Below, one piece after another: positions 10,203 to 45,805 of a stretch of DNA of 64,000 nt. The DNA comes from Patescibacteria group bacterium UBA1406 (lineage in GTDB: Bacteria; Patescibacteriota; Microgenomatia; UBA1406), in assembly GCA_002305675.1 (NCBI GenBank), contig DBQA01000007.1, positions 46,653 to 110,652 of the forward strand. Reading direction: 5' to 3'. The notes beneath the pieces are model-generated. The model was not told the origin of the DNA and ran no database searches. It saw nothing but the letters and a program-made list of their open reading frames with translations. How positions within the stretch are numbered: the stretch's first letter is position 1; each line of letters begins with the position of its first letter. The position numbers and the translations under genes are program-made.

Positions 10203-10225
10203 AAAAAACCCCGCTTTTGGCGGGG
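10203..10225 (-). terminator. intrinsic terminator (second of two after pnp), 11 nt upstream of the NTase-like gene ATG
   Basis: On the minus strand CCCCGC-CAAAA-GCGGGG is followed by TTTTTT. Confidence 0.6.
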
Positions 10226-10310
10226 TGTTAAATCAAGAGTTTTTTGACCCTTGGTTTATTAACAATTAAGTCCTTGCAAGAACCCATTAGTTTTTAAGCC
10301 CTTAATACTT

Positions 10311-22743: not shown

Positions 22744-25700
22744 TCATAAAGTAGCTAATCTGGGAGCTTCTTCCGGAAGTGGAACCTGTATCTTCTCCAC
22801 CTCGGGCTTCCTCCCGGCGACCTCTTTACCGCAGCGGGCGCAAATAGCCGTACTTCGGCCGGGGATGATGAGCGTCTCAAAATCGTATCCGCAGGAGGCG
22901 CAGTGCAGTTTTTTCTTGGCCGAGCCGTTCGTGCCTTCGTTCAGTTTGGCAGCCGTAGTGGCAAAGGTCAGCTTTTCCCCGTCGAAATCCACCAGGATAA
23001 CATCACCTTCCTTAGCTTTTCCATCAATGATGATCTCGGAGATCGGATTTTCCACATGGCGCTGGATCGCCCTCCGAAGTGGTCTCGCCCCGAACACGGG
23101 GTCAAATCCCAACCGGGCGATCTCCTTCTCGGCGAACTCGGTCACTTCCAGGCTCAGATTCTGTTCCTCCAAAAGCTGCCGCAAACCCTTCAGTTGCAGC
23201 TTGACTATCTTCAGCATATGCGCATATTTCAGTGGCTCGAAGACTATCACTTCGTCGAACCGGTTGACAAGCTCAGGCCTCATGAACTTCAGAAGTTCAT
23301 TCAGGATGGTCTCTTTTAGCTTGGCGTATTTTTTAGTGTCGGCGCTATCGGACATCTCGCGCACCTTCTGGATCTTCTCCTCAAGCGGGAAACCGCCCCC
23401 GAAATACTCCGGGATACGCTTAGCCTGCCAGCCGTCCGCCAACTTCACATAAACGTTCTCGCCGGTGATGATGGTCTCCTCGCCCTGACTGTTGAAGAAG
23501 TGGATATCCCAGTTGGCCGTCGGGAGGGGCTTGCCGTCTTTGGTCTTGGTGCCGGCAAAGTAGTCTGCCAGAGCCATCGTTTCCCAATCCTTTGTCCCGT
23601 GCGCCCTTCTCCAAAGCCTGTTCCGGAAGGTGACGATCTCGTCTTCCTGGGGGGTAAAGGCATGGGTGGACAGAGATGCCGTCGGCAGCTGGTCTTCCGG
23701 GGTGTCCGGCAGGGCGTTCACCACCACCTGGTCCTTGAAGAATTCCACCAGCTTCTGCTTTTGCCATTCCTTGGCCGTGGTCGCGGTCCTCACCGTGATG
23801 ACATCCCCGGCGGAGATGTATTCCGAACCCTGCGGGGAGATGGCATGGGTGTCGAGGGCAAAAGGCTCGAACCCGGCAGCCTGACCTTTCCCTTCTGCAT
23901 TCTTTTCCATGACCGTCTGACCGGCAAAATAATCCCGCAAGAGCTTTTCCTGCCATTTTCCGTCTGCGCTGTCCTTGGTGAACAGGGTGTTGCCGACCGT
24001 CAGGATGGCCCTTCCTCTCGGCGACACCGCGTATGTGTTCAGGGCTGGCGGTTCTTCGATATCCTGCTTGCCCTGTTTCATCAGTTCCTGCTGGATGAGG
24101 GTGGAGCCGATATTGGAAGTGCAGATCACAACCGTATTCTTGAACGAGATGGTATGGCCCTTGTTGTCCGTCAGCCGGCCGTCATCCAGGATCTGCAGTA
24201 AAATATTGAAGATGTCGGGATGGGCCTTCTCGACCTCGTCGAACAAAACCACCGAATATGGCTTTCTTTTGACGGCTTCCGTCAACTTGCCCCCCTCTTC
24301 ATAGCCGACATATCCCGGGGGCGCTCCGAGGAGCTTGGCCACTTCATGCTTCTCCATGTACTCGGTCATGTCGAAGCGGATCATGGAGTCTTCCGATCCG
24401 AATAGGATCTCGGCCAGTGTTTTGACCAGTTCCGTTTTTCCGACACCCGTCGGACCAAGGAAAACAAAGCTGCCGATAGGCCGCTTCACGTTCTTCAGGC
24501 CGGCCCGCCCCCTTCTGATGGCCTGTGCCACCGACGCAATGGCTGTTTCCTGGCCAATAAGCCGCTCATGCATGATGTCCTCAAGATGGGCGATCTTTTC
24601 CTTTTCGGTATCGCCGATCTTGTTGACGGGAATACCGGTCCAGCGGGAGATAACGTCCTTGATCATATCCACCGTCACTACCCCGACGGACTGGGCTTTC
24701 CTTTGCTGGAACTCGTCCTGTTTGGCTTTCAGTTCGTCCTGAGAATCGATGATCTTTTTCTCAAGAACGTTCGCTTTCACCTTGTTGCCCGCCTTCAGGG
24801 CCTCATCCTTTTCCTGTGAGAGCTGTTTGATACGGTTTTCCACCGACTTGATCTCCTCGGGAAGCGAGATTATGGGCAGTCGGACGGCTGAAGCGGTCTC
24901 GTCTATCAGGTCTATGGCCTTGTCCGGCAGGAAGCGACCGCCCACATACCTCTTGGACAGCCGGACCGCCGCTTCGAGAGCTTCGTTCGGGATCTTGACC
25001 TTATGAAATGCCTCGAATTTATCCCTCAGGGCAAACATCATCTTTATGGCTTGCTCCTCGGTCGGCTCGGGAACGATGATGGGTTGGAACCTTCTTTCCA
25101 GGGCCGGGTCCTTTTCGATATACTTGCGGTACTCCATGGTCGTGGTCGCCCCGATGACCTGGATCTCCCCCCGCGCGAGGGCCGGTTTCAGGATGTTGCC
25201 CGCATCGCCCGCTCCTTCCGAACCCCCGCCAGCGGTAATATTGTGTACTTCGTCGATGAACATGATTATCTGCCCGGCACTACCCTTCAGTTCGTCCAGA
25301 AGGGCTTTGAACCTTTCCTCAAAGTCCCCGCGATGCGAGGTGCCGGCGATAAGCGCCATCAGATCGAGCTCCAGAACTCTTTTGTTCAGGAGGCTCTCCG
25401 GCACTTCCTTGGCGACGATCTTCTGGGCCAGACCTTCCACTATGGCGGTCTTACCGACCCCGGCTTCCCCGGTCAGGGCAGGATTGTTCTTGGAGCGCCT
25501 AGACAGAATGTGGATCACCCTCTCGATGATCGCGGCCCTCTCAACCACCGGGTCGAGCTTGCCTTCCATCGCCTTTTTGGTCAGGTCGGTGGTATATTTT
25601 TCTAGGGCGCTTTCTTTTTTCTTACCGCCCTCTTTGCCTTCGGCTTCCTCCTCGGCTTTTTTCTTGCCAAGTACCTTAATGCTCAGCTCTTCCTTGTTCA

Positions 25701-26397
25701 ATCCCGTCTGCGACAGGACCCTCGCCCCCACGCCTTCCCCTTCGTTGAACAGGGCATAAAGCATGTGCTCGGGAGAAATGAACTCGTAACCGAGCTTTCT
25801 GGCCACGATCAGGGCATCTTCAAGGATCTTCTTCACCCGCGGAGAGATCTGCGGCTTGTCATTGGCGGTACCTGGTTTCATGGCCGCAATAAGCTGCTTG
25901 CTGACCTCCTGGGGAATGACCTTGAGACCGGACAGGAGGTTGAAGATCTCCTGGTCGGACAGGAGCCCGAACAAGAGGTGCTCACTGTCCACCATCGGGC
26001 TTTTCAGCTCCCCAGCTTTTTGGGCAGCAGAGGTCAGCACCCGGTTCGAACGCTGCGTCAGTCTGGTCATAATATCCATACCGGTCTTTTTATCCATGTG
26101 GCTATCCTCTTTTTTAACGCTTGATTCGGGTTCTGGACTTTGGGCGGGCGGTTTGCTCTCCGCCGGAGTAACGGCCGGGGGGTTGACAGCCGGAGGCGGC
26201 ATAATGCCGTCCGTAGTCCGTCCGCCGCCCGGTGCCGGCCCTATGCCGTTATACATTTTGGGGGCGGGACCAGCGGACTGGGATGACTGCACGACAGGTT
26301 CTTCCGCAATCTGGGAGCCTTGGTTTGCCTGGGCGGGTGGCTGACTGTTTTGCGGATTGCCCTGTGGCTGCGATTTCAGGAAATTCAAAATCCCCAT
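22744..26397 (-). CDS. ClpC/ClpB-like double-AAA+ chaperone with a disordered N-terminus, a ~225-aa four-repeat insertion in D2 and a C-terminal zinc ribbon
   Basis: Clp_N repeats ([19 protein letters not shown]), D1 Walker [10 protein letters not shown]2 Walker A GPTGVGKT, sensor/arginine [10 protein letters not shown]. See the findings for the additions. Confidence 0.9.
23383..24060 (-). repeat. four tandem ~40-55-aa protein repeats encoded inside the D2 AAA+ module (about aa 780-1005)
   Basis: Repeat cores are [11 protein letters not shown]...[24 protein letters not shown]...[24 protein letters not shown]...[13 protein letters not shown] and [13 protein letters not shown]...[13 protein letters not shown]. 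Confidence 0.75.
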
Positions 26398-31235: not shown

Positions 31236-32585
31236 TTATATCAACTTTTGCACCATTTGCTCATGGAGCTCTTTTGCCCGGGCCATTGAGTGGCCATTGC
31301 CATAGCTGACCGCCGTCAGGTGCAGGGCATATCCGTAAGGAAGGACGTCCGGATTTGATAACAATCCAAACGCCCCGAGCCGCCGGCTTTCCACAGAGCC
31401 GGGATCAAGGATATCCGAAAGGCACGTGCTTGCCTCCTGAAAGCTCATCCGCTGTCTGCCCAGGCTCTCCAGTGGAACGTTCAGATGGTACCAGGAATGC
31501 CCATGCTCGCCGAGATTCTGCGCCTCCAGGACCCGGACGACAAAATGCTTGATAAAGTCAAGCGCCCCGGGACGGGTGTTGTCCTCGATGAAATAGACTT
31601 CCCCACCGGGAGCATACAGAAAGTCAAAACAATGGAAGCCTGTCGCCCCCGTCCGCTTCAGACCGGGTACGATCCGATCTTGAGCAACATCTATAGCTAC
31701 CTTCATCGGGCCATTGGACTGGTCAAAAGGAAAATAACCGCCCACATAGCTACCCCGGTGGGCAATCTGGCCGAGGATCTCGGGTGGATAGACCACCTTC
31801 CCCGTTTGGTCAAGGAACAGGTGCAGGGAGGCCTCCGGAAGTTTGAGCTTCTCTTCGACCACATAAGGTGGATGTGACGGCGACAGATGGCTCTCCAAAA
31901 ATCCGGCCAATTCCGTGGTGCCAAGGGACTGCCACGACTCCCGGCGCAAACTGACATTGCTGCCAAGCTCCTCACCGCCGGTGCCGGCGGATGCCTTCAC
32001 TATCACATCCTTCCCCAGGCTCTGTGCAAACTCCCAGACCTCGGTGGCCGAATTGGCGATAAAACCTGCCGGCATGGGAACACCGTACTCCTCACCGAAA
32101 CTGCGAAAGCCTGTTTTGGTACCTATGTTCTCGGCCGCGGAGAGATCGGCGATATAGGTCGGATTTCCTAGTTTCTGGGCCAGGGTGATCTCGTCAGGGG
32201 ACAGATTGAAAAACTGGATTCTGGCCCCGCGCTTGCCAATATAGTATTTAAGGTAGTCCGTGACCGAAATGCCTGGTCCGTGGTCCACCATCGCGTTCAG
32301 GCTCAAGGTATCCGACCGGAAATTAGGGACGCTGACAATTTTGGGTAGGGAAAGTTTCAGGCTGTCCAGGTATTGCCAGTATCCCCGGTCTATCGGGTAA
32401 TCGGTCAAGACTAGGTCACCCTCTTTGGCCATCAGATACATACGGTAAAACCGCTGCTCCGCTTCGATGCCCCGCAAAGGGGAGGTCGACTGGGAGTCTA
32501 TGACCACCGTCGGTCCGGGAAATCCCCACGTCTTTTTTTCCGGTAGGCAGACGGTTTCGTTCTGAGGTCTGGTTTGTTCGTTCAT
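31236..32585 (-). CDS. ATP-grasp fold protein (candidate amino-acid/peptide ligase), substrate unknown
   Basis: VIVKASAGTGGEELG (P-loop-like ATP-grasp motif) and YFIEDNTRPG (Mg/ATP site). 8 nt upstream of argS on the same strand. Confidence 0.6.
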   Translation of the reverse strand: MNEQTRPQNETVCLPEKKTWGFPGPTVVIDSQSTSPLRGIEAEQRFYRMYLMAKEGDLVLTDYPIDRGYWQYLDSLKLSLPKIVSVPNFRSDTLSLNAMVDHGPGISVTDYLKYYIGKRGARIQFFNLSPDEITLAQKLGNPTYIADLSAAENIGTKTGFRSFGEEYGVPMPAGFIANSATEVWEFAQSLGKDVIVKASAGTGGEELGSNVSLRRESWQSLGTTELAGFLESHLSPSHPPYVVEEKLKLPEASLHLFLDQTGKVVYPPEILGQIAHRGSYVGGYFPFDQSNGPMKVAIDVAQDRIVPGLKRTGATGFHCFDFLYAPGGEVYFIEDNTRPGALDFIKHFVVRVLEAQNLGEHGHSWYHLNVPLESLGRQRMSFQEASTCLSDILDPGSVESRRLGAFGLLSNPDVLPYGYALHLTAVSYGNGHSMARAKELHEQMVQKLI

Positions 32586-32610
32586 TTTGTTTTATTTATT
32601 TTTAACCAAT

Positions 32611-32636
32611 AAAAAACCCCGGCATGATGGCCGGGG
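32611..32636 (-). terminator. intrinsic terminator between PBP1A and the ATP-grasp gene (also a possible attenuator)
   Basis: On the minus strand CCCCGGC-CATCAT-GCCGGGG (32636-32617) is followed by TTTTTT. The ATP-grasp ATG is 25 nt downstream. Confidence 0.7.
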
Positions 32637-32664
32637 AAAGTAACGGGCTTTATAAACTCACTTT

Positions 32665-32739
32665 TCAGGCATAAAACCCATTACCCTCCCAAGAGTTCCG
32701 CCTCGAAACGGGTCTGGTTAAAGATAACGGGTTTTCCAT
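32665..32739 (-). CDS. candidate 24-codon leader ORF (MENPLSLTRPVSRRNSWEGNGFYA*)
   Basis: Hand-read. It starts 10 nt after TGcTATAAT and contains tandem Arg codons AGG CGG. It ends about 28 nt before the terminator stem. Confidence 0.3.
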   Translation of the reverse strand: MENPLSLTRPVSRRNSWEGNGFYA

Positions 32740-32749
32740 ATAATCTGCT

Positions 32750-32758
32750 ATTATAGCA
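32750..32758 (-). promoter_or_regulatory. extended -10 (TGcTATAAT) immediately after the PBP1A stop
   Basis: The minus strand reads tgTGCTATAATagcagattatATG. Confidence 0.45.
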
Positions 32759-32763
32759 CAAAT

Positions 32764-34977
32764 TCAGCGGGCTTTGTTGATGGTCGGGGTAACCCTGAAG
32801 GTGGAACAGTTCACTGCCTTGGCCGTGCCGATAACGAAGTATTCCGGCCGGCCGTAATAACAAACCTTCTTTTCCAGATTGCGGGGAATGTAGAGCTCTT
32901 CGTCCAGGTATTCTTTGCTGACAAGCTCCTCGATGATCTTTCGCCAAATCGGGGCGGCGCCTGTTATGCCCGAGGTCAGGGAGGGGTGCATCGGCTGGTT
33001 GTCGTTGTTGCCTACCCACACTCCGACCAGGACATCGGCATGCCGGTTTTTCAAGGTCGGCCGGGTGAAACCGATGGTCCAGTTGTCCTTTTTCTCATCG
33101 GTAGTGCCCGTTTTGACGGAGAGATGAGAATTCCCGAAGTTCAGGGGCGAATTCGGCCCAAAAGCCCAGCTTCTGGCCACATTATCTGCCAGTATGTCCG
33201 AAACGATAAACGGCTCCTCCTCGTTTATCACCCTCGTTCCCTTAGTTTTTCTTTCATAGATAACTTCGCCCCTGTCGTTCTCTATCCTTAGGATAGGGTT
33301 CAGGTCGACCCGTACCCCAAGGTTTCTGATGGAACCGAAAGCGGTGGCCATCTCAAGCATCGTCACTTCCCCCCCGCCCAAGGTCAAGGAGAGTCCGTAC
33401 CTGTCCCTGTTCTCGGACCAATTTTCGACACCGAGCTTTTTGGCAAAGCTGATGAGGTTGTCGACCCCGATCTCCTGTAGAACCTTGACCGCCGGCACAT
33501 TATAAGAGTTCGCCAGTGCATACCGCAGGGGAATGGGACCATGAAAACTGTTATCATAATTGACCGGACGATAGGGCTCGGCCCCTTCCGCGCCAAAGAC
33601 TGTCGGAGTGTCCAAAATGATACTGGCCGCGCTCATTCCCTGCTTCAGGGCTAAAGTGTAGGTTAGGGGCTTGACCGAACTCCCCGGCTGCCTGGCGGCT
33701 GTGGTGACGTTGAATGCCCCCGACCGGCCATCGAAAAAGTCCCGCGAGCCGACCATCGCCAGTATTTCCCCTGTTGACGGTCGGGTCACGAGCACGGACC
33801 CGTTACCAACGTTCATGCTCTCGATTTTGGAAAGTTCCTCGTTCAGCACCTTTTCGGCCTCCTGCTGAATCTTGTAGTCCAGGGTGGTATAGACCTTCAG
33901 CCCTCCCCCCTGGACCATTTTCTGGCCATATTCTTCCTCCAGGAGGTTCTTGACGTAAAAAACGAAATGGGGGGCAAGTACCCGGGTACTGGGGCTTTTA
34001 AAATCGACATTCGTTCTAATCGCCCTGTCATATTCCTCTTTTTTAATATATCCCTCGTCATACATATTTCTCAGGACGGATCTTTGCCTGTTGAGAGCTG
34101 CCTTGGGATTGATATAAGGGGAATAGGCAGAAGGCGCCTGTGGCAAACCGGCCAGGAAGGCCGCCTCCGAGAGCGTCAGCCGACCGGCGCTCTTACCGAA
34201 ATACATTTTGGAGGCTTCCTCTATCCCCCAAGCAGTTCCCCCATAAGGCACCTGGTTCAGGTACATCTCCAGGATCTCGTCCTTGCTGTATTTTTTTTCC
34301 ACCAAGAGAGCCAGAATGATTTCCCTGACCTTTCGGGCAATAGTCCGCTCTGGCGTGAGGAGCGAACTTTTGACCAACTGCTGCGTGATAGTCGAGCCGC
34401 CCTGGAGTTTTTTCTGGAGGGCCGTCTCCTTGACCGCCCTCAATATGCCTCCGAACAGGGACACGCCATTATGCCGGTAAAAATCCTTGTCCTCGATGGC
34501 GATGGTTGCCCATCTCACATAGGACGGGAGAGTGGCCAGCTTGACGGGGGTGCGGTTCTCCTCCCGGAAGATCTCATACAGGAGCTTGTCGTCCCGGGAA
34601 AGGATATGTGTTGACAGCGAGGACCGGTAGTTCTCCACCATGGTCGGGTTGGGCAGGTTCTCGATAAAATCCAGGCTGGATTTCAATGACAGCATGAGGA
34701 TAGCCACCAGAAAACCGAAGGCAAAATACTTGATCCGGTAAAAAAGGAGGTAATGGTTCAGGGAGAAGAATTTCTGTTTCCGCTTAGGCCTTTTCCTGAA
34801 AAGCGTCCAGGAGAGCCTGGACAGTGGGTGCAGGATGGCCCCGAAGATAACAGTCAACAGCTCCCGCAGTTTATACAGCAACCAGAAAACGAGCGCCATC
34901 ACTTTGTCGATAAACATCAGGAATAGGTTCCCTGTTTTAATGCAAAGCTTAATAAAGACAATGATGGCCTTCTCCAT
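32764..34977 (-). CDS. class A penicillin-binding protein (transglycosylase + transpeptidase)
   Basis: GT51 motifs AIEDKDFYRHNG and GGSTITQQL. Transpeptidase motifs SSVKP (SxxK), SYN (SxN) and KTGTT. Confidence 0.92.
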   Translation of the reverse strand: MEKAIIVFIKLCIKTGNLFLMFIDKVMALVFWLLYKLRELLTVIFGAILHPLSRLSWTLFRKRPKRKQKFFSLNHYLLFYRIKYFAFGFLVAILMLSLKSSLDFIENLPNPTMVENYRSSLSTHILSRDDKLLYEIFREENRTPVKLATLPSYVRWATIAIEDKDFYRHNGVSLFGGILRAVKETALQKKLQGGSTITQQLVKSSLLTPERTIARKVREIILALLVEKKYSKDEILEMYLNQVPYGGTAWGIEEASKMYFGKSAGRLTLSEAAFLAGLPQAPSAYSPYINPKAALNRQRSVLRNMYDEGYIKKEEYDRAIRTNVDFKSPSTRVLAPHFVFYVKNLLEEEYGQKMVQGGGLKVYTTLDYKIQQEAEKVLNEELSKIESMNVGNGSVLVTRPSTGEILAMVGSRDFFDGRSGAFNVTTAARQPGSSVKPLTYTLALKQGMSAASIILDTPTVFGAEGAEPYRPVNYDNSFHGPIPLRYALANSYNVPAVKVLQEIGVDNLISFAKKLGVENWSENRDRYGLSLTLGGGEVTMLEMATAFGSIRNLGVRVDLNPILRIENDRGEVIYERKTKGTRVINEEEPFIVSDILADNVARSWAFGPNSPLNFGNSHLSVKTGTTDEKKDNWTIGFTRPTLKNRHADVLVGVWVGNNDNQPMHPSLTSGITGAAPIWRKIIEELVSKEYLDEELYIPRNLEKKVCYYGRPEYFVIGTAKAVNCSTFRVTPTINKAR

Positions 34978-38845: not shown

Positions 38846-40981
38846 ATGCTGGCCGTCTTTTTTTATTGGGCATTCATAATCGTGGTCTGGTATCTGTTCT
38901 CCTTCGTCTTCAGTCTGGCTGTGATGCCGCTTGGTGCTTTTATATTCAACCGGTTCAGGGACCGTGGTTACCCATTCTACCGGATCATCGGGCTTGGGGT
39001 GAGCGGCTATCTGGTGTTTACCGCCACGAGCTTCGGACTTCTCCCTTTCACCAGGACCACCATTTTTGGCACCCTTTTCCTCATTCTTCTCCTCAATATA
39101 GTCTTCCGGAATAAGACCAGACAGATGTGGCCCGGCCTGAAAACGGTGATCGCCTATGAAGTACTGTTCCTGGCTATGTTTTCGTTCTGGTCATTTGTGA
39201 AGGGGCATGAGCCCTCCATCAGGAGCCTGGAGAAATATATGGACTTCGGGTTCATCAACAGCCTCCTTAACAGCCGCTTTCTGCCTCCCCAGGACCCCTG
39301 GTTCGCCTCCACCGGCCAACAGTTCTTCTCCATCAACTATTATTACTTCGGTCACTTCCTGACCGCCCTTCTGATAAAGCTGACCGGAACAGTCCCGTCT
39401 GTCGGCTACAACCTGATGTTGGCCTTCATTTTCGCGCTGGCCACCACCGCGAGCTTCTCCCTAGGAGCCAACCTGTTTGTTTTCCTCACCGAAAAGAGCA
39501 AGTACCGGAGAAACGTCCTGATAATCCTGAGCGGGATACTGGCCCTGCTCCTGGTCAATTTCGCCGGCAACCTCCACACCATCTACCTGTTCACCAAAGG
39601 CTATACCCCGGAAAATCCCCAGCCCTTCTGGCAGATCCTCAGTTCCTTCAACCCCAGAGGTTACTGGTATCCCAATGCCACCCGCTTCATCCCCTTCACC
39701 ATCCATGAGTTCCCTTCCTATTCCTATGTGGTATCCGACCTCCATGGTCATGTTCTGGACATCCCGTTCGTATTGTTGGCCATCGGACTTTTCATGTCCC
39801 TCCTGAAGAACAGGGATAGGCTTTCGGACTTAGCCATTCTCATTTTCATCACTCTCACCCTGGCCATCAACTATATGACGAACTCCACCGACTTGCTGGT
39901 CTACGGGACGCTTCTGTTTTTCATCCTGGTCATCAAATACGAACAGGCCAGGCGGGTTTTTCTTTCTTATGCCGCCATTATCCTGGCTGCCCTCATTTTG
40001 ACCGCTCCCTTTTCCGTCTACTTCAAGCCTTTCGCGAGCTCCTTAGGCGTCAACTGTGCCCCTGATTTCCTGCTCAGACTTGGAAAACTCGGACCTTTTG
40101 TTTTTGAGGCGGACCGCTGCCAAACCAGCCCCTTCTGGATGCTGGCACTCTTATGGGGTTTTTTCTGGCTTAATTTCCTGGTTTTCCTGCGGTTCATCTT
40201 TTTTGCCAGGTTGGCCGATTCCGAACAAAAGGGCAGGAGCGGATATTTCGTTTTCTTTCTGTTCGTACATTCCATTTTGCTGACGCTTTTTGCCGAGTTC
40301 TTTTATTTTAAAGATATCTACCCGGCCCATTTCCGGGCCAATACCATGTTCAAGCTCGGCTACCAGGCGTATATTATGATGTCCGTCCTCTCCGCCGGGA
40401 CCATCGTCTACATGATCCATGCTTTCCGGAAACAGGCGGCCAAATTGAAAGCGGTTTACTTCGCTATCCTTGTGCCGATGCTGGTCCTTGTACTGTCCTA
40501 CCCGCTCCTGTCCATCCCGTCCTACTTTACCCGGGACAGTTTTCTGACGCTGGACGGGAGCCATTGGGTCAAGGAGGAATACCCGGAGATACATGAGATG
40601 ATCAACGTCCTGAACAAAAAAAAGGTTGAGGACGGCCCGTTCACCATTCTGGAGGCGCACGGGGACTCATATACCGACTATAACGTCATTTCCGCCCACA
40701 CCGGTCTACCCACAGTTGCCGGGTGGCCGGTCCACGAATGGCTGTGGCGGGGTTCTTATGAGGTGGTTCGGCCAAGAGCGGAGGAAGTGAGTACCGTTTA
40801 CCAGTCTGACGACTTGGGCCGGGTGAAAAAGATCCTCGCCAAGTATAACGTACGTTATGTGATCGTTTCTGACCTTGAGAAACAGAAATACGAGTCGCTA
40901 AATTACCAAAAATTTTATAGAATAGGAAAGCCTATATACCGCAATAACAACAGTTACCTGTTCGAGGTCGCCCATGACTAA
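38846..40981 (+). CDS. large polytopic membrane protein of the DUF2298 / YYY-motif family (putative glycosyltransferase-like)
   Basis: More than 15 predicted TMs plus the hallmark FFSINYYYFGHF. I prefer ATG 38846 over the TTG at 38828. Confidence 0.75.
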   Translation: MLAVFFYWAFIIVVWYLFSFVFSLAVMPLGAFIFNRFRDRGYPFYRIIGLGVSGYLVFTATSFGLLPFTRTTIFGTLFLILLLNIVFRNKTRQMWPGLKTVIAYEVLFLAMFSFWSFVKGHEPSIRSLEKYMDFGFINSLLNSRFLPPQDPWFASTGQQFFSINYYYFGHFLTALLIKLTGTVPSVGYNLMLAFIFALATTASFSLGANLFVFLTEKSKYRRNVLIILSGILALLLVNFAGNLHTIYLFTKGYTPENPQPFWQILSSFNPRGYWYPNATRFIPFTIHEFPSYSYVVSDLHGHVLDIPFVLLAIGLFMSLLKNRDRLSDLAILIFITLTLAINYMTNSTDLLVYGTLLFFILVIKYEQARRVFLSYAAIILAALILTAPFSVYFKPFASSLGVNCAPDFLLRLGKLGPFVFEADRCQTSPFWMLALLWGFFWLNFLVFLRFIFFARLADSEQKGRSGYFVFFLFVHSILLTLFAEFFYFKDIYPAHFRANTMFKLGYQAYIMMSVLSAGTIVYMIHAFRKQAAKLKAVYFAILVPMLVLVLSYPLLSIPSYFTRDSFLTLDGSHWVKEEYPEIHEMINVLNKKKVEDGPFTILEAHGDSYTDYNVISAHTGLPTVAGWPVHEWLWRGSYEVVRPRAEEVSTVYQSDDLGRVKKILAKYNVRYVIVSDLEKQKYESLNYQKFYRIGKPIYRNNNSYLFEVAHD

Positions 40982-42371
40982 AAAGGTTTTTTTCATTGAT
41001 CTCCCCAAAAGGATCGGCGAAGGCGTTGAGCTTTTCGGCTGGGTAGATACCAAGAGGGAGCACGGCAAGATCAACTTTCTGGACCTCAGGGACCATACGG
41101 CCACCGTGCAGGTGGTCGGTGGCGAGGAGCTTGCCGCAGCCGTACCCGAAGACGTGGTTAGAATAAGCGGCACGGTCAAACAAAGGCAGGAAAGATATGT
41201 CAATCAGAAGCTCCCGACGGGCGGGATCGAGATAGAGGCCAGGGAAATGTCAGTCATCTCCAAAGCCAAGACGCCCCTATTCCCCATCGGATCGGCCGGA
41301 TACGACATTGACGAAGAGTTGAGACTGAAATACCGCTACCTTGACCTGAGAAGGCAAAGGATGCTCGGCAATCTCAAAGCCCGCTTTGAAACTCTCTCCT
41401 TCATACGTAACTACCTGAAGGAGCGGTTTTTCGTGGAGATCGAAACCCCGGTCCTCACCAAGACCACCCCGGAAGGCGCCCGGGATTTCCTGGTCCCCTC
41501 CAGGCTACAGAAAGGCGAGTTCTATGCCCTGCCCCAGTCCCCTCAACAATACAAGCAGCTTTTAATGGTCGCCGGCATCGAGCGGTATTTCCAAATTGCC
41601 CGCTGCTTCCGAGACGAAGACCCCCGCCGGGACCGGGCTTACGGCGAGTTCACCCAGCTAGATATCGAAATGTCGTTCGTCACCCAGAACGATATCCTGG
41701 AACTAATGGAAAAGATGTTCACGGAGCTCATTGAAAAGGTCTTCCCCCAGAAAAGGATCTCTGTCACGCCCTGGCCCCGGATACCTCATCACGAAGCCGT
41801 GGCCAAATACGGCTCGGACCGGCCCGACCTTCGCCGAGATAAAAAAGATAAGGATGAATTGGCTTTCGCCTGGATCATCGATTTCCCCCTGTTCACCAAA
41901 CAGACCGCGGAGGATTTCTACCACGGGTCCGGCAAAGCTCAGTTCGCTCCTTCCCACCATATGTTTACCTCCCCCCACCCGGACGATACCGGACTATTGG
42001 ACAAGGACCCGCTCAAGGTCAGAGGATTACAGCATGACCTGGTGCTGAACGGCTTCGAGGTCGGAGGTGGCAGCATCAGGATCCACGACCCGGCCGTCCA
42101 AGGTAAGGTTTTCGATCTGATCGGCTTTACAGAACAGCAGAAGCAGCAGTTCCACCATATGCTCGAAGCGTTCAAATATGGTGTGCCTCCTCACGGGGGG
42201 ATCGCTCCAGGTATCGACCGGCTTCTCATGGCCATACTGGGAGAGCCTTCGGTCAGGGAAGTCATTGCCTTCCCGGCCTCGAGCGGCGGTAAGACAGCTG
42301 TCATGGACGCACCAAGCTCGGCCGAACCAGAACAGTTGGCGGAACTGGCTATCAAAGTGGACAAAAAATGA
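40974..42371 (+). CDS. aspS: aspartate--tRNA ligase, bacterial type but lacking the GAD insertion domain
   Basis: OB fold, motif 2 FQIARCFRDEDPRRDR, motif 3 GGIAPGIDRLLM. The sequence goes straight from SDRPDLRRDKKDKDELAFAWIIDFPLF. Confidence 0.9.
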   Translation: MTKKVFFIDLPKRIGEGVELFGWVDTKREHGKINFLDLRDHTATVQVVGGEELAAAVPEDVVRISGTVKQRQERYVNQKLPTGGIEIEAREMSVISKAKTPLFPIGSAGYDIDEELRLKYRYLDLRRQRMLGNLKARFETLSFIRNYLKERFFVEIETPVLTKTTPEGARDFLVPSRLQKGEFYALPQSPQQYKQLLMVAGIERYFQIARCFRDEDPRRDRAYGEFTQLDIEMSFVTQNDILELMEKMFTELIEKVFPQKRISVTPWPRIPHHEAVAKYGSDRPDLRRDKKDKDELAFAWIIDFPLFTKQTAEDFYHGSGKAQFAPSHHMFTSPHPDDTGLLDKDPLKVRGLQHDLVLNGFEVGGGSIRIHDPAVQGKVFDLIGFTEQQKQQFHHMLEAFKYGVPPHGGIAPGIDRLLMAILGEPSVREVIAFPASSGGKTAVMDAPSSAEPEQLAELAIKVDKK

Positions 42372-44392: not shown

Positions 44393-45805
44393 ATGGCCAG
44401 AACGCGCATTGCTCCCTCTCCCACCGGGCAAGACCTTCACATCGGCAACTTATACACCGCCTTGATCAACTACAGCTACGCCAGAAAGAATCGGGGTAGA
44501 TTTATCGTCCGGATCGAAGATACGGACCGGACCAGATATGTTCCCGGCGCAGAGAACAGGATTCTCGATACCTTAAGGGATTACGGCCTGGAACCGGACG
44601 AGGACCCGCTGAAAGGGGGCCCCTTCGCTCCTTACCGCCAATCCGAACGGCTTGACCTGTATCAGAGATATGCTCAAACCCTGGTAGACAAGGGGGCGGC
44701 CTATTACTGTTTTTGTACTCCCGCACGTCTGCAGGAACTACGTGAACGGGCGGTCAAGGAAAAGAGGCAGCCCAAATACGACCGGCACTGCCTTAATCTC
44801 TCACCCGAGGAAGTGGCCAACAACCTGAAGGACAATAGGCCCCGGGTCATCCGGCTCAGGATACCGGACGGCGAAACCGGTTTCCGCGATGTTATTAGGG
44901 GCGACATCAATATCCGGAACGAGGTCCTCGACGACCAGATACTGATCAAGTCTGACGGTTATCCCACCTACCATATGGCGGTAGTGGTAGACGACAAACT
45001 GATGGAAATAACCCACATCATCAGGGCGGAAGAGTGGATATCCTCCACCCCAAAGCACGTCATCCTGTACCGGGCGCTCGACTGGGAACTTCCCCTCTTT
45101 GCCCATGTCCCGCTCCTTAGAAATCCCGACAAGACCAAGCTTTCCAAGCGGAAAAACCCGGTCTGGGCAAGTTGGTACCTGAAGGAAGGCTATCTCCCGG
45201 ATGCGGTATTGAACTATCTTGCTCTGATGGGCTGGTCCCACCCGGAAGAGAAGGAGATCTTCGGTTTGAAAGAATATATAGATGTGATAAGGCTCGAAGA
45301 TATCCAGCCGGTCGGGCCGATTTTCGATCTGAAGAAACTGGAATGGCTGAGCGGCGAACACATCAGATTGATGCCACCGGCCGGATTGAAGGAAAGGATA
45401 GTCAAATACCTGGGTAAGCACCAGGACATTCATCTTAAGATAAATGAAATTGAACAAACCATTCCACTCGTACAAACCAGGATGAAAAAGCTCTCCGAAT
45501 ACTGGCCGTTGGTTAGCTTCATTTTTAAGCAGCCTGATAGAATAGAATTTCCGCTCAACTTACTTAAACAATGTCAAAAAGACCTGTTTAACATATATGA
45601 ACAAATTGAGTGGACGGCCGGTCAGGTCCATGAAAAAACAGAGCAACTGGCAGTCCAGGCAGACATCAAGCCGATCAAGCTCTTTATGGATATCAGGTAC
45701 GCCCTCTCCAACCAGAAGGTCACGGCCCCGCTTTTCGAAAGTATGGAAATAATTGGTAAGGAAAAAACCCTGGAAAGATTGCGGAGTGCTTTAAAGGTTG
45801 TCTAG
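44393..45805 (+). CDS. gltX: glutamate--tRNA ligase
   Basis: RIAPSPTGQDLHIGN (HIGH region) and KLSKRK (KMSKS). Confidence 0.92.
   Translation: MARTRIAPSPTGQDLHIGNLYTALINYSYARKNRGRFIVRIEDTDRTRYVPGAENRILDTLRDYGLEPDEDPLKGGPFAPYRQSERLDLYQRYAQTLVDKGAAYYCFCTPARLQELRERAVKEKRQPKYDRHCLNLSPEEVANNLKDNRPRVIRLRIPDGETGFRDVIRGDINIRNEVLDDQILIKSDGYPTYHMAVVVDDKLMEITHIIRAEEWISSTPKHVILYRALDWELPLFAHVPLLRNPDKTKLSKRKNPVWASWYLKEGYLPDAVLNYLALMGWSHPEEKEIFGLKEYIDVIRLEDIQPVGPIFDLKKLEWLSGEHIRLMPPAGLKERIVKYLGKHQDIHLKINEIEQTIPLVQTRMKKLSEYWPLVSFIFKQPDRIEFPLNLLKQCQKDLFNIYEQIEWTAGQVHEKTEQLAVQADIKPIKLFMDIRYALSNQKVTAPLFESMEIIGKEKTLERLRSALKVV

Follow-up and report, generated by a model that had tools for sequence, protein, structure and literature searches.

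A leader with conserved arginine codons ahead of an ATP-grasp-argS operon in a Microgenomatia bacterium: a probable ribosome-mediated attenuator

In the 64-kb stretch of the genome of Patescibacteria group bacterium UBA1406 analysed here in full (contig DBQA01000007.1; hereafter the window), the gene of an uncharacterised ATP-grasp ligase and argS, encoding arginine--tRNA ligase, stand behind a short leader that contains a promoter-like motif, a 24-codon open reading frame (ORF) with adjacent arginine codons and an intrinsic terminator. This arrangement raises the question of whether transcription of the operon follows the supply of charged tRNA-Arg and, if so, through which device. A sequence-only reading of the locus had proposed ribosome-mediated attenuation responding to Arg-tRNA. 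This proposal passes the comparative tests described below, in which the leader and its ORF prove conserved and the antiterminator pairing covaries, and the leader is probably a transcription attenuator of the ribosome-mediated, leader-peptide type, which responds to how much charged tRNA-Arg is available and controls the ATP-grasp-argS operon.

Leader-peptide attenuation is textbook knowledge for Trp, His, Phe, Leu, Thr and Ile/Val, and to our knowledge gene regulation in the Candidate Phyla Radiation (CPR) is almost entirely unexplored. A literature search of incomplete coverage returned no report of an Arg-specific, terminator-based attenuator for argS or argH-argG, nor any of attenuation by leader peptides among CPR bacteria.

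Anatomy and conservation of the leader

Coordinates of the leader and its operon refer to the minus strand. The features listed by the sequence-only reading, namely the -10 motif, the ATG, the tandem AGG-CGG codons, the terminator and the spacings of 28, 25 and 8 nucleotides (nt), are all present in place (Table 1): 28 nt separate the mini-ORF stop from the start of the terminator, and 25 nt lie between the end of the U-tract and the ATP-grasp ATG at 32585. The TGcTATAAT motif has no recognisable or usable -35 partner and is not listed by a two-hexamer promoter scan; it is accepted here as a putative extended -10 promoter on the strength of its conservation. The mini-ORF has no Shine-Dalgarno sequence and a 5' untranslated region of at most ~4 nt and, to judge from the sequence, is effectively leaderless. 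The terminator stem consists of seven G-C pairs with a hairpin energy of -15.1 kcal/mol, and it is the top terminator-like site within 29-36 kb. Structure prediction with RNAfold, one of the checks that the sequence-only reading had suggested, describes a strongly structured leader: its 160 nt fold at -56.1 kcal/mol, a value reached by none of 200 shuffles (z = -4.5), and the stretch from the G-run at the beginning of segment 2 to the terminator 5' arm reaches z = -4.9.

Table 1. Features of the leader and its operon in the window, with related regulatory elements at homologous or similar loci
Feature	Coordinates	Strand	Basis or remarks
PBP1A-family ORF	34977-32764	(-)	TIGR02074, 518 bits; TGA stop 32766-32764
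Putative extended -10 promoter TGcTATAAT	32758-32750	(-)	Sequence; 5 nt past the PBP1A stop codon; kept in relatives
Leader mini-ORF, 24 codons plus stop, MENPLSLTRPVSRRNSWEGNGFYA	32739-32665	(-)	ATG 10 nt past the -10; stop 32667-32665
Segment 1, codons 1-7, GGAAAACCCGUUAUCUU	32737-32721	(-)	Complementary to segment 2; proposed anti-antiterminator
Putative sensor codons AGG CGG, mini-ORF codons 13-14	AGG 32703-32701, CGG 32700-32698	(-)	AGG is the invariant codon
Pyrimidine tract AACUCUU	32697-32691	(-)	Between the Arg codons and the G-run
Segment 2, GGGAGGGUAAUGGGUUUUAUG, putative antiterminator 5' arm	32690-32670	(-)	Mini-ORF stop codon follows, in the apical loop
Segment 3, UAUAAAGCCCGUUACUUUCCC, putative antiterminator 3' arm	32654-32634	(-)	3' end (32636-32634) doubles as the first 3 nt of the terminator 5' arm
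Intrinsic terminator	32636-32611	(-)	Stem CCCCGGC/GCCGGGG (32636-32617), loop CAUCAU, U6 32616-32611
ATP-grasp ligase gene, 449 amino acids (aa), presumed first regulated gene	32585-31236	(-)	PGM1/BesA-like fold (modelled)
argS, arginine--tRNA ligase, 562 aa, presumed second regulated gene	31227-29539	(-)	TIGR00456; starts 8 nt past the ATP-grasp stop
T-box leader of ATP-grasp orthologue	L023:3063-3328		RF00230 47.7 bits, E = 2.5e-9; specifier GAA-CGC-G
T-box leader of ATP-grasp orthologue	L001:3496-3723		RF00230 33.6 bits, E = 1.1e-5; specifier GAA-CGA-G
T-box leader of ATP-grasp orthologue	L012:1661-1875		RF00230 44.5 bits, E = 5e-7; ultrashort Stem I
Second Arg leader copy, MKNLLFLSIALRRNYRESSRYCSA, AGG CGA	L022:5982-6114		Own TGaTATAAT promoter; between the M20 gene and argH-argG
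His-type leader, MKSKIISSQIHHTLHLEGTHL	L019:4363-4500 (= L026, same coordinates)		TGtTAATAT, 9 nt, ATG 4382

Related loci, designated by L numbers, were retrieved through an alignment of the ATP-grasp protein (A1) and comprise 7 genome loci, 7 metagenome loci and 12 contigs encoding specific homologues. They provide 18 distinct homologous leaders, 15 of them complete, in metagenome-assembled genomes (MAGs) of Microgenomates type and in metagenomes. The covariance model R1, built on 17 of these leaders, scores them at 49-84 bits and the truncated leader of L011 at 28.6 bits, so that all 18 are recovered, and the conservation in relatives on which the sequence-only reading depended is thereby established. 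Since the ORF regions are 55-92% identical to one another (between subfamilies only 55-67%), the loci are not assembly duplicates of one sequence.

The members of this family share a common order: extended -10, ATG, an ORF of 22-24 codons (in 15 of 15 complete leaders), AGG-Arg, pyrimidine tract, G-run, a hairpin whose apical loop contains the mini-ORF stop codon, and terminator. A TGnTATAAT-like motif lies 6-11 nt 5' of the ATG in every complete leader (15/15), a GC hairpin with a U-tract equivalent to the window terminator is found in all homologous leaders, and an A/U-rich spacer of 20-35 nt separates this C-rich GC terminator and its U-tract from the first gene. Because the upstream gene is divergent in at least eight relatives (L003, L005, L006, L010, L016, L022, L024 and L025), the terminator is not merely the end of that gene; the possibility, raised by the sequence-only reading itself, that the hairpin serves only PBP1A thus falls away. 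In the window the hairpin probably terminates PBP1A transcripts as well.

The device matches no known family. The Rfam search (cmscan of 32300-33000, E<=10) identified neither a leader of the Trp, His, Thr, Leu or Phe type nor any other family in the window leader, and at gathering scores none was identified in eight relatives. The sole matches of the window leader are small RNA (sRNA) models such as RyhB, GadY and similar ones, at E>=0.048 and far under the gathering scores; they were rejected, since the terminator by itself accounts for them. Nor is the window leader a T-box: it has no Stem I with a specifier loop, no AGGGUGGUACCGCG-like T-box sequence, no RF00230 match at E<=10 in 32300-33000 and no GGUGGUACC-like motif nearby. 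Within the window the element is also solitary, since a pattern scan of the entire sequence for a -10, mini-ORF and terminator in succession gave the leader site as its sole credible match, and the R1 search of the 64 kb returned nothing besides the leader above 18 bits. One further site, 10203-10274, was considered as a second copy and rejected as an ordinary terminator.

The reading frame of the mini-ORF is conserved, and its peptide, apart from the position of the arginine, is not, which is usual for leader peptides outside their regulatory codons. Across the 15 complete leaders the frame of the ORF is free of stops, whereas the other two contain 27 and 17. AGG is present in 18 of 18 leaders, at codon 11-13, and the codon after it is CGG, CGC, CGA, CGU or AGA in 16 of them, a set that includes all four CGN codons and AGA, or every single-step synonymous neighbour of CGA; the remaining two leaders, which are closely related, have CAA. 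Because the second codon varies among Arg codons in 16 leaders, arginine is kept there through synonymous changes. In every leader AGG and the stop are 36 or 39 nt apart. The distance from AGG to the G-run is 12-14 nt in 17/17, and the UGGGAGGGU motif consequently falls in all three reading frames; lying 12, 13 or 14 nt past AGG, this motif is constrained as RNA and the Arg position as a codon. Such conservation strongly suggests that the mini-ORF is translated.

A further feature is seen in part of the family. The ORFs of L003, L004, L005, L006, L010, L011, L017, L022a, L024 and L025 end in a strictly conserved AUG AGG UAA, placed 9-10 nt past a Shine-Dalgarno-like GGGAGGG (e.g., L003:3874-3898), which the window leader lacks. 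This could be an internal two-codon start-stop ORF that again uses AGG.

The pairing between the ORF and the terminator proves more extensive than first described. The sequence-only reading had paired 11 nt within the mini-ORF (32693-32683) with the 5' arm of the terminator (32641-32631); its count of 7 Watson-Crick pairs, 3 G-U pairs and 1 mismatch stands, and the duplex turns out to be only the base of a continuous helix of 21 base pairs (bp) formed by segments 2 and 3 (helix 2:3; 32690-32670 with 32654-32634, as folded by RNAfold in the window leader). Whole-leader MAFFT alignments (A2, A3) were out of register between subfamilies, and pairs were therefore counted on an alignment re-anchored at the G-run (A4). 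In A4, 85.6% of the cells of helix 2:3 with its GGG:CCC extension are paired. Column shuffles give 76.1 +/- 1.7%, with none of 500 reaching the observed value, and shifting the register by 1-3 columns lowers the figure to 45-56%. Compensation on both sides is seen in 29 cells versus 11.3 +/- 2.7 in shuffles (again 0/500), and two pairs show four pair types. The mini-ORF and its covarying pairing are thus retained in the orthologous leaders. Pairing of the G-run with the C-run that leads into the terminator base is nearly complete (97.9% of cells in A4), and in all leaders segment 3 abuts the terminator with a linker of 0-2 nt.

The sequence-only reading had cautioned that the Arg codons lie too close to the antiterminator arm for the classical trp-type geometry. 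Two observations remove this caveat. Segment 1 can form with segment 2 a duplex whose best energy is -21.9 kcal/mol in the window and -13.6 to -22.3 kcal/mol in 15/15 complete leaders, and segment 1, helix 2:3 and the terminator together have the trp-like 1:2, 2:3 and 3:4 geometry. In addition, toeprinting and ribosome profiling place the downstream limit of ribosome protection ~12 nt from the first base of the A-site codon; since this footprint matches the distance from AGG to the G-run, a ribosome waiting on AGG would have its leading edge where the G-run starts. At the other end, the window stop codon is 13 nt ahead of segment 3, and a terminating ribosome would for this reason cover all of segment 2 and leave segment 3 free. 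In relatives, the pyrimidine tract pairs locally with GGGAGG in the RNAalifold consensus, at -6.6 to -9.2 kcal/mol in the L003/L004 subfamily and only -3.0 kcal/mol in the window.

The proposed switch and its alternatives

This architecture suggests how the leader may work. Transcription would start a few nt before the ATG, directed by the extended -10, and the 24-codon ORF would be translated leaderless or nearly so. When Arg-tRNA is plentiful, the ribosome would reach the UGA in the apical loop of the 2:3 hairpin and cover segment 2; upon its release segment 1 would re-pair with segment 2, segment 3 would stay single-stranded, and the GC hairpin with its U6 tract could form, stopping transcription 25 nt ahead of the ATP-grasp ATG. 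When Arg-tRNA is scarce, the ribosome would wait with AGG, or the next CGG, in the A site, its footprint ending 12 nt downstream at the G-run. Stalled in this position, it would mask or hold apart segment 1 and the pyrimidine tract, and segment 2 would zip with segment 3 into the 21-bp helix. This helix would claim the three C residues at the base of the terminator stem and adjoin its remainder, so that the terminator would be hindered in the RNA exit channel and RNA polymerase would read into the ATP-grasp gene and argS. Translation of the mini-ORF, stalling at AGG and the direction of the switch are presumed in this scheme.

Three features that characterise attenuators are observed in the family. 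The regulatory codons are cognate to the genes that follow (AGG in 18/18 leaders, with argS, argH and argG downstream), an intrinsic terminator lies between the leader ORF and the first gene, and segment 1 is a competing partner of the antiterminator 5' arm in each of the 15 complete leaders. On its testable features, the element would therefore be classed as a leader-peptide attenuator, apparently working like the trp and pheST attenuators.

A number of points weigh against this interpretation, and some of them concern the ORF. Leaderless translation is assumed on the basis of promoter spacing alone. Two or three Arg codons in 24 constitute a modest enrichment, and tandem arginine is not universal, as L022a and L025 read AGG CAA (Arg-Gln). 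The usual rare-codon rationale fails as well: in window ORFs of at least 200 aa (GC 51.6%), AGG (314) and CGG (290) are the most frequent among 971 codons for Arg, so that the invariant leader codon is the one used most often in the window, and it is in the AT-rich relatives (L002-L025) that AGG is rare (0-11 per locus), though invariant in their leaders. The idea of AGG as a rare, "hungry" codon was accordingly rejected as a general explanation. The sequence AGGC may also have a role at the RNA level, for instance in a small GCC...GGC hairpin that appears in several folds.

The remaining difficulties are energetic. The antiterminator overlaps the terminator 5' arm by only 3-4 nt, and by 1 nt in L016, and the 2:3 region is weakly structured in L002, L016 and L022b (z = -0.7 to -1.4). 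In every leader, 5-9 kcal/mol separate the antiterminator state from a more stable one that combines the terminator with a shortened 2:3 hairpin, and in all relatives the latter is the equilibrium fold under the ribosome mask. The direct-path barrier from antiterminator to terminator, calculated with findpath, is ~3 kcal/mol in 16 of 17 leaders and 9.7 kcal/mol in L021. Nearest-neighbour energetics, taken by themselves, predict that the hairpin should not keep the terminator from forming. The window leader is the only one whose structure of minimum free energy is antiterminated (-52.0 kcal/mol naked; -44.2 kcal/mol masked vs -37.9 kcal/mol with the terminator enforced), because the 5' part of segment 1, GAAAACCC, can pair also with the terminator 3' arm and the U-tract. 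Equilibrium folding as proof of the switch was rejected, given that the terminator wins in every relative over a barrier of ~3 kcal/mol.

With a low barrier and a favoured terminator, the switch must be kinetic or steric and receive help from RNA polymerase or the ribosome. In folds of the nascent RNA with a ribosome on AGG, the G-run sequesters 2-4 nt of the terminator 5' arm in 16/17 leaders, and the three C residues held in this way account for the lowest pairs of the terminator stem, adjoining the U-tract. Only 0-2 nt link segment 3 to the stem, so that more of the rigid helix 2:3 would probably have to melt before the stem could be completed within the RNA exit channel. We infer that the 3-4-nt overlap and the adjacency of the helix suffice to prevent termination, and the mutual exclusivity of antiterminator and terminator is the weak point of the scheme.

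Because the energetics favour the terminator at equilibrium and the barrier leading to it is low, it is conceivable that the ribosome does sense arginine in the leader and that the output is not antitermination. Sensing would then act on mRNA stability or processing, or on the access of Rho or an RNase, and the hairpin would be a constitutive, partly leaky terminator or a stabilising 3' end; elsewhere two Arg codons control the fate of an RNA without any intrinsic terminator (PMC6386406). This alternative is unlikely. It leaves without a role the conserved pairing of G-run and C-run into the terminator base and the invariably tight junction of segment 3 with the terminator. The antiterminator of the His-type leader described below overlaps the terminator 5' arm fully, and the T-boxes that replace the leader at related loci work by antitermination.

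An RNA-only leader, in which a riboswitch or a protein- or tRNA-binding element controls the terminator and both the ORF and AGGCG are by-products, is improbable. It would account for the conservation of UGGGAGGGU and helix 2:3 as RNA in whatever reading frame, for an AGG that is invariant despite codon usage and whose AGGC pairs with upstream GCC in several folds, and for an overlap of antiterminator and terminator too small for a simple ribosome-driven switch. It does not explain why the ATG keeps a fixed short distance from the -10 in 15/15 leaders, why in-frame stops number 0 against 27 and 17, or why ORF length and stop position are kept although the frame relative to the G-run shifts. 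The second codon, moreover, varies only among Arg codons in 16/18 leaders, CGN to AGA included, and sequence conservation is low in the 5' half of the leader, where no aptamer core stands out; nor does any Rfam family match.

In a sensor based on nascent-peptide arrest, as in TnaC, SpeFL or the fungal AAP, the leader peptide would stall the ribosome together with free arginine or another metabolite, and a high level of this ligand, not uncharged tRNA, would be the inducer. Conserved ORF length, conserved residues after the arginine (S/L-G-G, E-G) and the occurrence of AGG as the last sense codon in one subfamily speak for such a sensor. Yet across subfamilies nothing but the arginine is conserved in the peptide, and the apparent conservation of the downstream residues reflects the RNA motif, which falls in different frames. 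That an excess of arginine should induce argS, argH and argG would be illogical, and the orthologous T-box leaders respond to uncharged tRNA, which points to induction by starvation; an arrest sensor is very improbable here. A chance arrangement, with the hairpin as the PBP1A terminator, an accidental promoter motif and ORF and an unregulated operon, would suit the lack of any other PBP1A terminator ahead of the hairpin and the fact that promoter- and terminator-like sites are not enriched across the region, and it is refuted by the comparative data, in which the whole module is kept in 18 leaders behind differing, often divergent, upstream genes, travels with the ATP-grasp gene and once with argH-argG, and contains a covarying helix.

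Regulated genes and replacement of the leader

If the leader is an arginine attenuator, the genes behind it should be related to arginine, and this is what is observed. Identification of the window argS is secure (TIGR00456 at 386.9 bits vs a cutoff of 261.65, residues 9-562; Pfam tRNA-synt_1d, DALR_1 and Arg_tRNA_synt_N). The ATP-grasp protein is more remote from characterised enzymes. Its match to Pfam PreAtp-grasp PF18604 (23.8 bits) is under the 27.5-bit cutoff, and its identity to solved ligases is only 14-18%. A profile search against the PDB retrieves PGM1 at E = 7.8e-6, and the AlphaFold2 model (mean confidence, pLDDT, 90.7) resembles in Foldseek a Streptomyces ATP-grasp peptide ligase (8ynd; E = 8.5e-21, template modelling score, TM, 0.69-0.74), BesA (8yi6, TM 0.71) and PGM1 (3wvq/3wvr, TM ~0.70), with biotin carboxylases more distant (TM ~0.55). 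The sequence-only reading had left the classification to profile methods; the model and these searches indicate a PGM1/BesA-like ligase with a pre-ATP-grasp domain and an ATP-grasp fold. The family is tiny. An exhaustive profile search found 36 cluster representatives at E<=1e-30, ~10 of them close, among 1.84e9, and an index of 5.8 billion proteins holds 26 relatives, the named ones being Dojkabacteria, Roizmanbacteria and Beckwithbacteria MAGs.

ATP-grasp-argS operons stand behind the leader in the window and in L003, L015, L024 and L025. In L017, L018 and L020 the leader precedes an operon of a ~250-aa protein without assignment, ATP-grasp, an M20 deacylase and argS; L016 has the leader with the 250-aa part fused to the ATP-grasp ORF, and L021 has it before ATP-grasp-M20-argS without the 250-aa gene. 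In L002 the leader is followed by ATP-grasp and then other genes, and in L001 ATP-grasp stands alone with a T-box leader in place of the attenuator. As L001 and L002 have no downstream argS, it is the ATP-grasp ligase, not argS, that is the constant partner of the leader. L022 contains two Arg attenuator copies in series, one before ATP-grasp-M20 and the second directly before argH-argG (ArgH, TIGR00838 at 322 bits vs a cutoff of 279.5; ArgG, PF00764). The M20, argH, argG and 250-aa partner genes were not detected in the window by tblastn.

An "Arg-using ligase", as the sequence-only reading put it, is speculation. A link of the ATP-grasp protein to arginine supply is supported by context, because the gene combines an Arg sensor with M20 deacylases of ArgE/DapE/PepT-like type, argS, argH and argG. 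The protein encoded ahead of ATP-grasp (254-277 aa; L017:2732-3496, L018:2666-3499, L020:120-893) has no Pfam or NCBIfam match; since it is fused to the ATP-grasp N-terminus in two proteins (P0003/P0005; L016:3501-5540), it is likely a functional partner of the ligase. Gene order is reversed in L007 and L014, where argS lies upstream of ATP-grasp with a terminator-like hairpin between them, and no leader was found immediately 5' of argS at these two loci. The L007 record is labelled "uncultured Gammaproteobacteria"; with the ATP-grasp family otherwise confined to CPR, this looks like a binning or label problem.

At some loci a different device takes the place of the leader. The ATP-grasp orthologues of L023, L001 and L012 are preceded by T-box leaders, which score below the Rfam gathering score and possess the canonical GGUGGUACC or GGUGGUAAC box; a specifier CGC for L012, from a short-stem loop reading CGCA, is tentative. 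Swaps of T-boxes and leader peptides at syntenic loci have been documented (PMC2965389). Given that either a leader peptide or an Arg-specifier T-box precedes the orthologues, two unrelated tRNA-Arg devices converge on the ATP-grasp family. A GGTGGTACC box is also present at L013:2520. In L001, a mini-ORF MKIEIIVTKIFRREVSIKKPVFVSIYKDKYRR (with CGU CGC, ending AGG AGG UGA) and a second terminator lie between the T-box terminator and the ATP-grasp ATG (L001:3816-3975), which may represent tandem T-box and leader-peptide control, or chance.

The scaffold may also have changed its codon. R1 matches L019:4427-4500 at 23.9 bits (E = 0.002; fold z = -4.5), where CAU CAC takes the place of AGG CGN and the G-run is found 14 nt past CAC. 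The antiterminator of this His-type leader, GGAGGGUAC:GUGCCCUCC, covers the entire terminator 5' arm. Downstream are genes of a 247-aa weak GNAT-like protein and an M20 deacylase of the ArgE/DapE family; as these are uninformative, they provide no cross-check of the His reading. A broader proposal, which we regard as possible and rather doubtful, is that of a codon-swappable leaderless attenuator scaffold in Microgenomates-type CPR, with an Arg form at ATP-grasp operons and argH-argG and a His form at the GNAT-like and M20 genes of L019/L026, in which the ATP-grasp ligase would be an arginine-supply or -salvage enzyme under two unrelated tRNA-Arg sensors.

Known attenuators and the surrounding genes

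The closest mechanistic parallel is the E. coli trp attenuator (trpL), which likewise has a short leader ORF with adjacent cognate codons, segments pairing as 1:2, 2:3 and 3:4, and a stop placed so that the terminating ribosome covers segment 2, the position of the ribosome deciding the switch. The Arg leader differs in sensing Arg and in having a leaderless ORF with no Shine-Dalgarno sequence and an ATG 6-11 nt past the -10. Its sensor codon is located between segments 1 and 2, 12-14 nt before segment 2, and not inside segment 1. The trp leader shares segment 3 completely between antiterminator and terminator, unlike the Arg leader with its 3-4 nt, and the two have no sequence or Rfam similarity, the host of the Arg leader being a CPR bacterium.

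Leader-peptide attenuation of aminoacyl-tRNA synthetase genes is represented by pheST of E. coli, with its leader peptide pheM. In Bacilli, His leader peptides occur upstream of hisS paralogues (PMC2965389). As in the window, a synthetase gene is placed in these systems under a leader ORF with cognate codons and a terminator, and in other lineages such leaders swap with T-box leaders at syntenic loci; here, however, amino acid and lineage are different, and argS is the second gene, behind an uncharacterised ATP-grasp ligase. With the T-box (RF00230) the Arg leader would share the signal (uncharged tRNA-Arg), the output (antitermination) and the regulated gene family (ATP-grasp), whereas the window leader is ~130 nt long with an ORF, and its sensor would be the ribosome, without direct contact of tRNA and RNA.

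Two further systems are comparable in the sensing step. In the Salmonella speF leader, ribosome pausing at two consecutive Arg codons of orf34 under low arginine selects an alternative mRNA structure (PMC6386406). The outputs there are Rho-dependent termination, unmasking of the ribosome-binding site and RNase G sensitivity, and the gene is a polyamine gene; the Arg leader, in contrast, ends in an intrinsic terminator and fronts arginine-supply genes. Mycobacteria have leaderless polycysteine short ORFs that define a Cys "ribulon" with translational output (bioRxiv 10.1101/834739). They resemble the Arg leader in that the leaderless sensory ORF is the first cistron, that a stalled ribosome blocks an inhibitory RNA duplex and that one device serves several pathway operons (here the ATP-grasp operon and argH-argG), and they differ in that the Arg leader has a canonical terminator and no downstream Shine-Dalgarno sequence to unmask. 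The leader may thus be viewed as an Arg-specific, leaderless, CPR version of known leader-peptide attenuation.

The family provides a compact model of ~130 nt in which the position of the sensor codon is apparently tuned to the ribosome footprint (12-14 nt), and its antiterminator, touching only the bottom of the terminator stem, makes it a case for how little overlap suffices. For the ATP-grasp family, regulation supplies a functional label, namely presumed induction by Arg-tRNA shortage through leader peptide and T-boxes together with clustering with argS, argH, argG and M20 genes, which makes a role of the ligase in the arginine supply of reduced-genome bacteria directly testable.

The surroundings of the leader locus in the window include genes of a sortase, FtsH and a penicillin-binding protein, which, like the named relatives of the ATP-grasp protein, suit a CPR genome of Microgenomates type. 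Two other aminoacyl-tRNA synthetase genes are present, one of class II D/K/N type at 40974-42371 (+) and a GluRS-like one at 44393-45805 (+). Both overlap or abut their upstream genes and have no leader, so that argS is the only synthetase gene in the window with the putative attenuator. A ClpB-like ORF at 22744-26397 (-) is unusually long (1217 aa), with ~280 unmatched residues between AAA_2 (639-774) and the D2-small domain (1057-1136) that may be an insertion or an intein.

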